Shown: in pieces, positions 38,469 through 64,000 of the stretch | How the letters are laid out: each line of letters begins with the position of its first letter | Position numbering within the stretch: position 1 is the stretch's first letter | Assembly (NCBI GenBank): GCA_944387555.1 | Contig: CALXFH010000002.1 | Coordinates: forward strand, 12,041-76,040 | Length of the DNA stretch: 64,000 bases | Reading direction: 5' to 3' | Source of the DNA: an uncultured Clostridia bacterium | Lineage (GTDB): Bacteria; Bacillota; Clostridia; TANB77; CAG-508 | Position numbers and translations under genes: made by a program | The notes under the pieces: model-generated | What the model saw: the letters and a program-made list of their open reading frames with translations, nothing else | Told to the model about the DNA's origin: nothing | Databases searched by the model: none

Positions 38469-39680
38469 ATGGAAAATACAAGATTATATCAAGATATTGC
38501 TAAAAGGACAGATGGTGATATTTATGTAGGAGTTGTTGGTCCTGTTAGAACTGGTAAATCTACTTTCATTAAACGATTTATGGATTTGCTTGTTATTCCT
38601 AACATAGATAATGAATACAAAAAAGAAAGAGCAAAAGATGAACTGCCACAAAGTGCTGGTGGAAAAACTATTATGACTACAGAACCTAAATTTGTTCCAA
38701 ATGAGGCTGTTGAGATAACTTTAGACAACAACTTAAAATTTAAAACAAGATTGGTAGACTGTGTTGGCTACTTAGTAGATAATGCAATCCGGCTATTTAG
38801 AAGATGATATGCCAAGAATGGTTAAAACTCCTTGGTCTGATGAAGAAATACCATTTGAAAAAGCAGCAGAAATTGGAACAAAAAAGGTTATTGAAGAACA
38901 TTCTACTATTGGTATTTTAGTTACAACAGATGGAACTATTACAGATATTCCAAGAGAAGATTATATAAAAGCAGAAGAAAGAGTTGTATCAGAATTGAAG
39001 GCTTTAAATAAACCTTTTATCATTTTACTAAATTCAGCAGAACCAAATTCTACATATACAAGAGACTTAGCTAATAATTTAAGTGAAAAATATAAAACAA
39101 CTGTTATGCCTATTAATTGTGAGTACCTAAGTATTGAAGATATTAACAATATGTTTTCTTCTGTTTTATATGAATTTCCAGCTGACCAAATTAAAATTAA
39201 ATTTCCTAAATGGATGGATGGTTTGGATTTCTCTCATCCACTAAAAGCTGAATTATTTAAAGAAATTAAAGATGCTTTTGAAGATGTAAATGTTTTAAAA
39301 GATGTTTCTACATGTTGTGATAAAATTAAACAAACAGATATTATTTCAAATACAACAATTACTGATATGCAACTTGGCTCTGGTAATGTAACAGTTGAAA
39401 TAACCTTAAAAGATGAATTATTCTACAATGTACTTTCTGAAATTACAGGTGTTACTGTTACTAATGAAGGAGATTTATTCCGTATCATTTCTGAGCTATC
39501 TGCTACTAAGAAGAAATATGATAAAATCTCTTATGCTTTAGATGAAGTTGAACGTAAGGGTTATGGAATTGTTACTCCTTCTATTGATGATTTAATTTTA
39601 GAAGAACCTGAAATGGTTAAACAAGGCTCTCGTTTTGGTGTTAAACTAAAAGCTACAGCACCTTCTATCCATATGATAAG
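38469..39680 (+). CDS. spoIVA: stage IV sporulation protein A, 5-prime ~400 codons only: needs a +1 shift at in-frame CGG (38790-38792) and is truncated by the element inserted at ~39681
   Basis: Walker A VGVVGPVRTGKSTFIKRF. Skipping the C gives VDCVGYLVDNAI-G-YLEDDMPRMVKTPW. Homology ends after ...KLKATAPSIHMIR, where SpoIVA normally continues VDIETE... Confidence 0.85.
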
Positions 39681-41297
39681 ACCTAAACAGATACTTTTTT
39701 TATCCACCTCCGACATCGCAAGATCGAGGTGGAAATTTATTTTTAATCTAACATGATTCTTCTCAATTTTTTTAGCATATATACAACTTATTTTTTCATG
39801 TATAAATTCTTTTGTTATTTCAAAACTATCAAAATTGAAATAGTTTTTTATTCTATCAGCATTTTTATTCATCTCCCTTCTTTGTTTATCATTTTTTATA
39901 TCTATAATTTTTGACTTATATTCAAGTATTTGATTTTTGTATTCATTGTTTAATTCTTCAAATTCATCTTCATTTATTTTATTTATTGAATATAACTTTA
40001 CTAATCCTTTTTTATCTTGTTCTATTTCGTTTAGTTTACATTCGAGATTCTCAAGATCTTTATGATTTTCTTTATATTTTTCTACTATACTTTTATTTAT
40101 ACTTAATAATTTATTTTGTATATTCATTTTATTTTTCAATATGCAAGAAAATACATCTTTTAGAATTGCATCCAATTCATGCGTTCCTAAATACACATTA
40201 TTGTCACAGGCTTCCATTTTATCCTTTGCATATTTTGAACAAATCCAAAATTCTTGTTTTGCAGTTGGTCTATGTTTTCTTCTCCAAAATGTCTTGCCAT
40301 CATTTGCACATAAAATAATATTAGAATATTGATATTTATTATTCCATCTATTTCCTGACCCTGTGTATTTTTTACTTCTTTTTGTATAGATTTCCTCACA
40401 TTTATTCCATAATCCTTCATCAACTATTTGTGGAACTACTTCTTCATCAGCTTTATATTCTACCCAATCCTCTTTTGGAAAAAAAACTCTTTCTTTTGTT
40501 AAAAAGTCAATTACTTCTGTTTTTTTACCACAGTAAAAACCTTTGTATTTAGGATTTTCTAATATTCTTCTTACTGTTGAATAACAAAGTGCCTTACCTT
40601 TATTGGATACTATCCCTTCTTTTTCTAATTCCTTTCCTATTTTTCTTATTCCTATTTCTCCAGTTGAATATAATTCATATACCCTTCTTACCATATTTGC
40701 TTCTTCTTCATTTACTTTTAACTTACAATGATCTTTTTCATATCCCCAGATAGAATTATTACCTAAGACTCTCCCTCTTTCTATTGCTCTGTTAAAACCA
40801 AATTTTGTTCTCTCTGAAAGTCTTCTACTTTCATCTTGAGCAAGTGATGCCATAATTGTTAGTCTTAATTCTCCCTCCTGTTCTAATGTATTAATATTAT
40901 CTAACTCGAAATATACTCCTTTTCCATTTGCCAATAATTCTCTTGTTATTTGTAATGTATCTATTGTATTCCTTGCAAATCTACAAACCTCCTTTGTTAA
41001 TATTAGATCATACATATCATCTAATCCATCTTGTATCATTGCATTAAAATCATCTCTTTTTTTAGTAGATGTTCCTGTTATTCCATTATCAGTATACCCA
41101 TTTACTAATGTCCATTTAGGTATTGATAATATTTTCTTTTTATAATATGTATCTTGATTTTCAAGAGAATTTTTTTGATATTCCTTCTCTGTTGATACTC
41201 TAGCATAATATGTTACTCTTAATGGTAAATCATATATACTTTTTCCTGAAGATAATGCTTTTCGCATTTCATACAAAGTCATATAAATCACTCCCAA
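39561..41297 (-). CDS. large serine recombinase 1 (ORF reads ~40 codons past the junction into antisense spoIVA)
   Basis: Resolvase catalytic N-terminus YYARVSTEKE...(catalytic Ser)...DLILTKEVCRFARN, recombinase and zinc-ribbon regions, coiled coil. Confidence 0.85.
   Translation of the reverse strand: MGVIYMTLYEMRKALSSGKSIYDLPLRVTYYARVSTEKEYQKNSLENQDTYYKKKILSIPKWTLVNGYTDNGITGTSTKKRDDFNAMIQDGLDDMYDLILTKEVCRFARNTIDTLQITRELLANGKGVYFELDNINTLEQEGELRLTIMASLAQDESRRLSERTKFGFNRAIERGRVLGNNSIWGYEKDHCKLKVNEEEANMVRRVYELYSTGEIGIRKIGKELEKEGIVSNKGKALCYSTVRRILENPKYKGFYCGKKTEVIDFLTKERVFFPKEDWVEYKADEEVVPQIVDEGLWNKCEEIYTKRSKKYTGSGNRWNNKYQYSNIILCANDGKTFWRRKHRPTAKQEFWICSKYAKDKMEACDNNVYLGTHELDAILKDVFSCILKNKMNIQNKLLSINKSIVEKYKENHKDLENLECKLNEIEQDKKGLVKLYSINKINEDEFEELNNEYKNQILEYKSKIIDIKNDKQRREMNKNADRIKNYFNFDSFEITKEFIHEKISCIYAKKIEKNHVRLKINFHLDLAMSEVDKKSICLGLIIWIEGAVAFSLTPKREPCLTISGSSKIKSSIEGVTIP
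39704..39732 (+). other. GC-rich hairpin just inside the element's left junction
   Basis: ccacctc-N15-gaggtgg, followed by aaatttattttt. Confidence 0.5.
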
Positions 41298-41391
41298 CTA
41301 ATTATTTTAGTTGTGTTGTAACTCTGTTTTTATGTATTGTCAAGACTTTGGAAGCTCTTTATATAAAATAAAAAAGCCCTTATGGACTTTT

Positions 41392-62517: not shown

Positions 62518-63357
62518 TTATAAATTTATTTGATATGTATAATTTTCCCATAATTTTAAATACTCATTTGTATTATTTGAATTGTGTCTGACGCATCTAA
62601 TTATTCTGTCAAATAAAACTAAAATAACTAACGCATCTATTTTTTCTGTTGCTTCATTCTGTAAATCATCATATAATTTCAACATTGTCATATCCTTACA
62701 AAAAATCAAATCAGAAAAAATGAAAAATATATAGTCATATATACGATCACCTGCTATTGGTTGTGGATCAATTACTCCGACTAAATCATTGTTCTTAAAT
62801 AATAAATTATGAATTCCTAAATCTCCATGCAATATTACCTTATTAACTGGATATTTATTCAATACACTTATAGCTCTTTCAACCTTGTTATATTCAAATT
62901 TGTTCAGCACTTCAAAAGCATATGGTTTTCTCCATGACATTTCACTTTCAAAAAAATCACTCCATGATTTTTTCTCTTCAAATAAATATCCATATCCATT
63001 CCAATCACATCCTTTATATGAAGCTATGTATTCTTTCATATTATTTTTTAGTTTTTCTATATTAATCTTTTCTTTTTCAATATTATCGTTATCTATATAG
63101 CCATAAACTATATATTCATCACTATTATCATCATAAAATAATATTGTTTCATTATATTTACTAATATTGTTTTCAAAAAAAATTTTTTCTCCTTTTATAG
63201 TAACCTGATTATTAAATTTTATTATATATTTATTATTTAATAAATACACATTACTATGAACTCCTGTATCCATCTTTTTATAATATAAGAATTTCTCATT
63301 TTTGTTTTTTAAGACTAGATTAAAAACACTTATTTCCTTTTCACTTAAATCTATCAT
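62518..63357 (-). CDS. aminoglycoside/choline-kinase-family (APH-fold) phosphotransferase
   Basis: Catalytic loop VILHGDLGIHNLLF and GVIDPQP.AGD. Confidence 0.75.
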   Translation of the reverse strand: MIDLSEKEISVFNLVLKNKNEKFLYYKKMDTGVHSNVYLLNNKYIIKFNNQVTIKGEKIFFENNISKYNETILFYDDNSDEYIVYGYIDNDNIEKEKINIEKLKNNMKEYIASYKGCDWNGYGYLFEEKKSWSDFFESEMSWRKPYAFEVLNKFEYNKVERAISVLNKYPVNKVILHGDLGIHNLLFKNNDLVGVIDPQPIAGDRIYDYIFFIFSDLIFCKDMTMLKLYDDLQNEATEKIDALVILVLFDRIIRCVRHNSNNTNEYLKLWENYTYQINL

Positions 63358-63369
63358 CTTTTTCCCTCA

Positions 63370-64000
63370 TTATTTTATTTTATTAATTTCTTTTATGAAA
63401 TCTATAATTATTTTTTCTTTTAATTCTTCAGTTTTTAACAACATAAACAATCTTTTTTTTGTACTTAAATTTATATATGTGTATTTCTTATTTTTTAGTA
63501 AAGGCAATTCTTCTAACATTTTATTGTGATAAGGTTCGTATGATACTCCCATTTTTTCTGCAATAGCTATCATTTGTTTAAAAATAGCTATATCTTCTGT
63601 CCAAATAGGAATTCTTTCCCAATAACACTCTTCTACTTTTTCAACTTTATAGAAATTTATTTTTTTATTCTTTATTTCTTTATAACAAATTCTTGCCAAT
63701 TTAATGTTGTGTCTTTTTTTGTTATCAGCTTTATTCATCAACTCAGCCAAATTTAAACTTGAATTGTATGGCATAATATACGGAATAAGCTCTTTTTCAC
63801 TATATCTAGATTGAATATTATTATAATCCATATTATCAATTATGTTATTATTGTTAGTTAACACTATACCTCCTATACCAAAATCTAGCGGTTTTCCTTT
63901 TCCAAACGAAGAAACGATATAATCGCTACTATCTCCAATTTTTTCTTCGCTAAAAATATCCCACCCCTGTGCAATGTCTTCTATAATTATTTCATTATTT
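63370..64000 (-). CDS. second DegT-family aminotransferase, C-terminal part (open at the right edge)
   Basis: The frame stays open upstream of the ORF-track start. Own translation ...IIIEDIAQGWDIFSEEKIGDSSDYIVSSFGKGKPLDFGIGGIVLTNNNN... matches the DegT EDxAQ / SF..K / GxGG motifs. Confidence 0.6.
   Translation of the reverse strand, partial: NNEIIIEDIAQGWDIFSEEKIGDSSDYIVSSFGKGKPLDFGIGGIVLTNNNNIIDNMDYNNIQSRYSEKELIPYIMPYNSSLNLAELMNKADNKKRHNIKLARICYKEIKNKKINFYKVEKVEECYWERIPIWTEDIAIFKQMIAIAEKMGVSYEPYHNKMLEELPLLKNKKYTYINLSTKKRLFMLLKTEELKEKIIIDFIKEINKIK

Follow-up and report, generated by a model that had tools for sequence, protein, structure and literature searches.

Is a sporulation gene that has been split by an intervening element lost to its host, or is it rebuilt when a spore is made? 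The question is raised by spoIVA in a 64,000-nucleotide stretch of DNA from an uncultured Clostridia bacterium (contig CALXFH010000002.1, positions 12,041 to 76,040; hereafter 'the window'), where the gene is interrupted by an element encoding serine recombinases. Among coat morphogenetic proteins, only SpoIVA is conserved in every endospore former, and its action falls early in the sigma-E period. Its gene is sigma-E-dependent and expressed in the mother cell in B. subtilis and C. difficile, and in B. subtilis the C-terminal region of the protein is needed for function. We read the locus as a non-phage, probably conjugative element of at least 44 kb, located at the His401 codon of spoIVA, that would be excised in the mother cell to rebuild the gene, and we give this reading an even chance of being right.

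The two ends of the split gene

The 5' fragment of spoIVA (38469..39681, + strand) comprises codons 1 to ~404, with the ATPase and middle domains. Pfam SpoIVA_ATPase and SpoIVA_middle cover these positions (E 1e-57 to 2e-61), and tblastn aligns the fragment at 94–99% identity with the intact SpoIVA of a relative (P0002). The open reading frame (ORF) listing, Pfam and tblastn agree that homology ends at ...KATAPSIHMI^R (the caret marks a junction here and below), at about residue 404 of 492. The insertion point is at codon ~401–404, inside the coding sequence, and the 5' frame runs a further 24 codons into the element before a stop at 39756. Directly inside the break are two large serine recombinase genes on the reverse strand, encoding RecA (39561..41282, 573 residues as integrated) and RecB (41392..43023, 543 residues), each with Pfam Resolvase, Recombinase and Zn_ribbon_recom domains. 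Searches by tblastn, run with the SpoIVA of B. subtilis and a 96%-identical one from Clostridium, found no SpoIVA C-terminal coding sequence in the window or in the 9.4 kb past its end, which were taken from an identical metagenome contig (L001). A preliminary description of the window had proposed a split of spoIVA by an element encoding serine recombinases, with two such genes immediately inside the break and the missing ~90 C-terminal residues absent from the remaining 24 kb, and on all of these points our searches agree with it.

The 5' fragment is not intact. A 1-nucleotide insertion at ~38788 breaks it into ORFs of 112 and 324 residues, the site (38784..38796, + strand) reading GCAATCCGGCTAT in the window as against GCTATTGGTTAT and GCAATAGGCTAT in relatives. 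The insertion creates AUC-CGG-C at codon ~107, followed by a stop at codon 113, and CGG is used in 0 of the 5970 codons of 11 window genes. The homology had previously been described as continuous to ~39680; the end point agrees with Pfam and tblastn, which reach 39681, and the continuity is contradicted by the insertion. Two metagenome contigs, each from a further, independent sample (L003 and L004, 99.9–100% identity), have the identical insertion; the frameshift is therefore real and fixed in this lineage.

Relatives were searched for with the frameshift-corrected 404 residues of SpoIVA. Many are intact proteins of 492 residues, with up to 96% identity (P0002). P0023, P0028, P0033, P0054 and P0120 (88–89% identity) have 428 residues and no frameshift, and end with the window's own read-through junction, ...IH(M/I)IR^PKQILFLSTS.... 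The P0054 and P0033 loci (L006–L009, L037–L039) share the left flank of the window (LonC, DUF4363, DUF421, holin-like, hexapeptide transferase and UDPGP), followed by a window-like recA-recB pair and a collinear module of ~9 kb comprising small ORFs and regulators. Since their left flanks have a mean identity to the window of only ~82% (L006) and ~86% (L037), their hosts are different species. The preliminary description had recommended a comparison with element-free relatives, and this is supplied by the intact locus L010, which has an empty attB site and the expected right flank. Its left flank is 88% identical to that of the window on average (87.7%), and to the right of the empty site it carries a 178-residue gene, ORF6N, a transglutaminase-core gene, the gerA operon and RNase R.

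The last 89 residues of SpoIVA, used as a query, returned many short ORFs bearing only the SpoIVA_C domain. The closest relatives of the window share a near-invariant SpoIVA C-terminus, to which no 90% cluster representative gave a match; among the cluster members, P0405 (91 residues) is 100% identical to the C-terminus of P0002, and no other 3' fragment found matches the C-terminus common to these relatives. P0405 occurs in 53 collection blocks, compared with 54–58 for the element genes of the window. In its loci (L057–L059), the gene order is a VirD4-like type IV secretion system coupling protein, VanZ, several unknown genes, DUF3560, S-adenosylmethionine (SAM) synthetase and attR, and then 3' spoIVA, the 178-residue gene, ORF6N, transglutaminase, gerA, RNase R and SecG. 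The right flank of L057 is 88.7% identical to L010, close to the 87.7% of the window's left flank, and the only split 5' allele in the window's group is the frameshifted one of the window itself. On the strength of flank identity, abundance and the lack of other 5' partners, L057 very probably holds the opposite end of the window's element, and L057–L059 very probably derive from the same lineage. GerAA orthologues (P0260 and P0247), tried as another route to the right junction, led only to species with intact spoIVA.

These loci bear on two further statements of the preliminary description. The right junction had been placed beyond the window, where L057–L059 very probably put it, and the 3' spoIVA fragment that was to be looked for downstream exists, as a 91-residue fragment beside attR, its assignment to the window's genome being indirect. 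The element had been given as at least 24 kb, and its left part does occupy 24.3 kb of the window (39680..64000); since L001 and L057 do not overlap, the total rises to at least 43.7 kb (24.3 + 9.4 + 10.0).

The attL core, CATATGATAA (39670..39679), is common to attR and attB. The element-side arm of attL, GACCTAAACAGATAC... (39680..39710), is an inverted repeat of the attR arm GTCTGTTTAGAGCC, and is identical in L006 despite the distance between the two species. Written out, attB (L010) is ...CCTTCTATCCATATGATAAAAACAAATGTCC..., attL (window) is ...CCTTCTATCCATATGATAA^GACCTAAACAGATAC... and attR (L057) is ...GTGTCTGTTTAGAGCCTATCATACATATGATAA^AAACAAATGTCC.... The attP site reconstructed from these, with the synthetic junction ...GTCTGTTTAGAGCCTATCATACATATGATAAGACCTAAACAGATAC..., forms the dyad TCTGTTTAG-N4-TATCATA-[CA]-TATGATA-N4-CTAAACAGA, and the symmetry of this predicted site is typical of serine-integrase sites. 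Because the dyad centre falls on the CA of the His401 codon (39670–39671), we infer that this dinucleotide is the 2-bp crossover. When attL and attR are joined in silico, the junction matches attB of L010 base for base. The raw rejoined window product stops at codon 113, owing to the frameshift; minus the extra base, it is an uninterrupted protein of 492 residues, 96.5% identical to P0002. Rejoining of the 428-residue alleles is expected to give a clean ORF.

Related elements at the same codon

The attR arm, GTCTGTTTAGRGC....CATACAT, was found in six GTDB species representatives and nine Joint Genome Institute (JGI) metagenome contigs, the GTDB carriers including Clostridium sp. CAG:921 and several uncultured Clostridium metagenome-assembled genomes (MAGs). 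The 3' part of spoIVA follows directly after the arm in 14 of the 15 loci, and the remaining one (L050) stops at the contig edge. All six GTDB loci, and the two JGI loci that were compared (L055 and L056), have a SAM synthetase gene immediately within the element. The SAM synthetase at L001 7261–8373 was considered as a marker of the element end and dropped; it is a paralogue (72–74%), with a second copy at the true end in L057.

Among the 3' ORFs, P0121, P0129, P0131–P0133, P0135, P0438 and P0449 open with the element-derived ...NVCVCLEPIIH(M/L)IK^TNV..., while P0142 and P0144 open with MEKIFICLERTMHMIR^ANIETEV, and many others are 91 residues long and start at Met402. P0142, found in 250 collection blocks, marks a third and very common type of spoIVA-splitting element (L029–L033). 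The right end of this type carries a series of ORFs of similar size (~190–213 residues) and giant proteins of 1609–2290 residues, with almost no Pfam matches.

A smaller element is seen complete in an NCBI MAG contig (CAPIYT010000005.1, L034), in which the left flank is the same as in the window and both spoIVA halves lie on one strand, 9,519 bp apart. This element has a single large serine recombinase of 546 residues at its right end, 47% identical to RecA and to RecB, whose stop codon sits in the att core, together with a sortase and a few small genes; removal of the 9,519 bp leaves a clean SpoIVA of 492 residues. The attP arms of L034 and the arm of the P0142 type (L029) have TC(T/C)GTTT at the distance from the central CA that is seen in the window's element. 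Three or more types of element, with related recombinase-att units, thus use the His401 codon, which is split in many gut Clostridium species. Cargo differs between species, and the 9-kb module of recombinases and regulators is conserved. In L037, a ToxN-type toxin gene (19776–20852) replaces part of the window's cargo.

Recombinases, regulators and cargo

RecA is the presumed integrase and excisionase for spoIVA. Its ORF spans attL, such that the last ~40 codons are antisense spoIVA, and its orthologues in L006 and L037 terminate at the core. RecB is 59% identical to RecA, and the RecB orthologues in L006 and L037 are 76–85% identical to it. In the window's element family, the recA frame stays open for 43–47 codons across attP into the right end, so that the excised form may encode a longer RecA. 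The resulting tail peptide, CMIGSKQTH..RVHG..KYDIEFGID.., is conserved, with changes biased to third positions; its ORF is found at L057 9860–9997 and in the right ends of L012, L019, L023–L027 and L048–L056, while the P0142-type element has only ~20 such codons. A search of the representative library with RecA gave no homologue carrying the tail, the support for which is internal conservation, and neither the window nor L001 contains the tail, the attR arm or the 3' spoIVA fragment. Tentatively, integration would exchange the C-terminal tail of RecA for host-antisense codons. Another RecA reading into antisense spoIVA was seen in P0467. P0474 (619 residues) is a large serine recombinase, 43% identical to RecA, that is fused in frame to a C-terminal domain of SpoIVA (...AGMLCILL) from a more distant host, and is a further arrangement, in which the recombinase reads through the att site into the 3' part of spoIVA.

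Upstream of recA is a conserved promoter-like motif of 50 bp, TTGACAAT.CATAA.AACAGAGTTACAACACAAC (41294..41343, − strand). A second copy, 92% identical (L001 6516–6565), precedes a 112-residue ORF ~25 kb deeper in the element. We considered this direct repeat as an att pair for RecB and rejected it; because both copies lie just upstream of start codons and contain TTGACA, they are better read as a common operator or promoter, in the latter case perhaps one recognised by the sigma-like protein that the element encodes. A terminator-like hairpin that is conserved in the alignment follows recB (41369..41394, − strand), suggesting that recA is separately transcribed. Upstream of recB is an operon of small ORFs (43040..44849, − strand) encoding 50, 138 (helix-turn-helix), 52, 85 and 55 residues and a 144-residue sigma-70 region-4-like protein, all collinear in L006 and L037; among them are candidates for a directionality factor or regulators.

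The 5' leader of this operon, upstream of the sigma-like gene (44840..45035, − strand), is structured, with a conserved 17-bp long-range stem (z = -3.4). Within it, ACAAATAGTCTT pairs with AAGACTATTTGT ~75 nucleotides away, and a third copy, TATTTGTCC, adjoins the ribosome-binding site, a layout that suggests alternative, attenuator-like pairings. Rfam had no match in the window, the leader included. The rest of the conserved left module (45222..49213) comprises a receiver-like protein (+ strand), ORFs of 196 and 110 residues, a LysR regulator (47319–48191, − strand) and a viperin-like radical SAM protein fused to a receiver domain (45972–47174, − strand), a fusion that is kept in three species (window, L006 and L037). 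The protein encoded at 45972–47174 matches prokaryotic viperins best, at E 8.5e-36, which falls short of the cut-off for that family.

The preliminary description had called the element skin-like, and here we differ. No phage structural, packaging or lysis genes were found along the 34 kb covered from the left end (PHROGs, which matched only regulators, and Pfam), neither relatives of RecB nor the attR arm were present in IMG/VR, and the closest known element is gin. A prophage at 1–12 kb of the window, suggested by ORF sizes, was ruled out by PHROGs. The best PDB match of RecA is 3g13, the recombinase of a conjugative transposon, a VirD4/TraG-type T4SS-DNA_transf match lies at the edge of L057, and the element encodes an 862-residue thioester-domain LPxTG adhesin; these three features indicate that it is probably conjugative. 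No relaxase or VirB4 was seen in the parts of the element that were read (window, L001 and L057). Among clostridial transposons that are conjugative or mobilisable, Tn5397 (TndX) and Tn4451 (TnpX) have large serine recombinases, and SCCmec has CcrA and CcrB. The window's element resembles the former in having a serine recombinase at its end and the latter in having a tandem paralogous pair. None of these is known to be located in a sporulation gene or to have been assigned a developmental role.

Most of the remaining element sequence in the window (50348..64000, − strand, continuing in L001 7228–9988) appears to be a blasticidin/gougerotin-like peptidyl-cytosine nucleoside cluster with self-resistance. 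It includes a cytosylglucuronate (CGA) synthase (53601–54710, − strand, E 6e-63), a BlsE-like radical SAM decarboxylase (56650–57636, − strand, E 3e-36) and an ABC-F ribosomal protection gene (51745–53475, − strand, ribo_prot_ABC_F above cut-off), alongside aminotransferases, methyltransferases, UDP-glucose dehydrogenase, a BlsM-like Nuc_deoxyrib_tr (nucleoside deoxyribosyltransferase-family) protein and SAM synthetase. Clusters of this type are known from actinomycetes and are not known from gut clostridia.

Excision, inactivation or switching

In the mechanism we propose, RecA would integrate the element at the CA of the spoIVA His401 codon, and the spore genome would keep it and pass it on vertically, as with skin, SPbeta and gin. 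By analogy, RecA and a directionality factor (possibly a small ORF at 43040–44849) would excise the element in the mother cell, rebuilding spoIVA early in the sigma-E period, and complete SpoIVA would then start coat and cortex assembly. When the 5' halves were compared in pairs, among split alleles (window, L037, L006 and L034) and among intact ones (L010, L042 and L045), an equally strong excess of third-position and synonymous changes was seen in both sets, and the seven differences between the L057 3' fragment and L010 are all synonymous; both halves are thus kept under purifying selection. Since the window's fragment otherwise shows no decay, the frameshift is recent. In the window lineage, the gene copy may therefore have recently become a pseudogene, or may be served by inefficient +1 frameshifting at the otherwise unused CGG. 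A +1 shift there would, speculatively, give back the ancestral NAIGYLEDD, and +1 frameshifting is the sole alternative to spoIVA being dead in this lineage.

Several observations weigh against developmental excision, and some of them also favour a plainer explanation, in which the element inactivated spoIVA in a lineage losing sporulation, the gene being a mere conserved landing site and excision serving transfer only. The frameshift is present in every copy of the lineage seen (window, L003 and L004), and the protein collection holds no unframeshifted 428-residue allele above 89% identity; because it is fixed in the 5' fragment, excision alone would leave spoIVA out of frame, and this lowers our confidence that the window's system still works. 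The neighbouring gerA operon is broken in L057, as it is in relatives that have kept an intact spoIVA; both gerAA and gerAC are divided into two ORFs in L057 (13314–17444) and L010 (14541–18679), and gerAA alone in L042 and L045, while more distant relatives have full-length GerAA (570 residues). Germination genes may be decaying in this group, and the pattern mildly favours a decay of spore functions more generally. The element carries transfer-type genes (the VirD4-like protein and the LPxTG adhesin). No directionality factor was identified, the small ORFs of 50–85 residues beside the recombinases having no recognisable homology, and no sigma-E or sigma-K promoter was identified by a sigma-70-type scan, which was at chance level, and inspection of two upstream regions by eye, the scan not covering the sigma-E/sigma-K consensus. 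No single contig with both junctions of the window's element type was seen, the link to L057 being indirect, and scans of genomes and JGI metagenomes gave no attP of an excised circle, all 15 hits being attR. Yet inactivation sits poorly with the state of the gene. Bar one base, the halves have no other stops, the 5' half being 96% identical to an intact relative and the 3' half 100% identical at the protein level, with synonymous changes, and carriers in other species have clean 428-residue 5' halves and intact 3' halves. Moreover, three element types hold a position that permits exact rejoining, and a non-excising insertion in an essential sporulation gene should be purged from spore-formers. 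We consider inactivation unlikely on balance, though it is the most serious rival to mother-cell excision. A split UDPGP gene was also seen beside spoIVA in L040–L044.

A reversible population switch, of the active-lysogeny or yin type, would have vegetative excision and re-integration set the fraction of cells that sporulate, tied to transfer. There is a precedent in yin, which in yabG gives growth-phase-dependent mixed populations (PMC10747680), and recA has its own promoter-like motif, common to another element gene. Many short contigs begin 20–30 codons before the att site, giving ORFs of 111 and 121 residues that start at Met382 or Met372 (P0123, P0125, P0137, P0151, P0178, P0375, P0425 and others; contigs mostly of 1–10 kb, a few up to 72 kb). 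Assemblies that broke at the att site because occupied and empty or excised alleles coexist in a sample would give such a pattern, but the breaks could equally mean co-occurring strains, and with no attP junction in the scans we think a switch improbable. An assembly artefact, either a chimeric join or a wrong frameshift, might be suspected because these are metagenome assemblies whose contigs often break within the element. However, the junction and the frameshift recur in independent samples and studies at 99.9–100% identity, the junction is at a specific dyad-symmetric site that recurs across species, and the inserted base lies outside any homopolymer, making an artefact scarcely credible. 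Mother-cell excision can also be taken further than we propose above, to a conjugative family in gut Clostridium, attached at the His401 codon and domesticated as a developmental switch, in which excision rebuilds spoIVA as the first coat morphogenetic gene to act and frees a circle that is competent for transfer and carries a nucleoside antibiotic cluster aimed at the ribosome, a RecA tail of ~45 residues made only in the excised form controls directionality, and +1 frameshifting at CGG restores NAIGYLEDD; taken as a whole, this extended version is a doubtful proposition.

The sporulation genes known to be interrupted by intervening elements (PMC4191935, PMC5595907, PMC6957869, PMC10747680 and PMC5025042) are sigK, spsM, spoVFB, spoVR, gerE and yabG, with spoIVFB in one paper. 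We found no report of an element in spoIVA; our coverage of the literature was incomplete, so this is not proof. Our verdict is that the spoIVA element adds a target gene to the skin/SPbeta/gin class and is closest to gin, which is likewise non-viral with several recombinases. Gin, in gerE of Bacillus cereus ATCC 10987 (GirC/GirX; PMC5595907), is similarly a non-prophage element of tens of kb that splits a mother-cell sporulation gene, carries several serine recombinase genes including a tandem pair, of which one of three suffices for rearrangement, and rejoins at a short common core, as is predicted for the spoIVA element. In contrast to gin, the window's element targets a sigma-E-period morphogenetic ATPase in a gut Clostridium, and has transfer-type genes, an antibiotic-like cluster and a recombinase ORF across the att site. 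Skin in sigK (SpoIVCA; Skr in B. subtilis, CD1234 in C. difficile; PMC5025042, PMC6957869) also leaves the gene halves co-oriented, as L034 does, and ranges from a few kb to ~50 kb, with L034 resembling its small forms, but skin is prophage-derived and targets a sigma factor, whereas the window's element has two recombinases and no phage genes. SPbeta in spsM (SprA/SprB; PMC4191935, PMC5499854) is comparable in being large, in its antimicrobial cluster (sublancin rather than a nucleoside type), in its mother-cell target gene and in its serine integrase. Its directionality is set by a small sporulation-controlled factor (PMC4191935, PMC5499854); SPbeta differs in being an active phage, and in the window's element neither a factor like SprB nor a promoter for sporulation was identified. 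Yin, in yabG of Clostridium botulinum V73 (PMC10747680), also encodes a recombinase and splits a clostridial sporulation gene, with attB conserved in other strains; it is prophage-like and known from one strain only, whereas the spoIVA elements occur in many species and hundreds of contigs. The novelty lies in the gene that is targeted, in how prevalent such elements are in gut Clostridium and in the probably conjugative character of the element.

If excision must precede the synthesis of SpoIVA, this would be a programmed DNA rearrangement that acts earlier, and on a more central gene, than those in sigK, gerE, spsM, spoVFB, spoVR and yabG. Split spoIVA fragments are present in hundreds of contigs assembled from metagenomes and come from several species of gut Clostridium; annotation pipelines would call them pseudogenes, and predictions of sporulation capacity in gut bacteria would be wrong for the carriers. 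The recombinase-att units, with attB inside a highly conserved stretch of 40 bp, are possible integration tools for clostridia. In joining sporulation, horizontal transfer and an antibiotic-like cluster, the element would offer a testable model of how mobile elements exploit the split between germline and soma.

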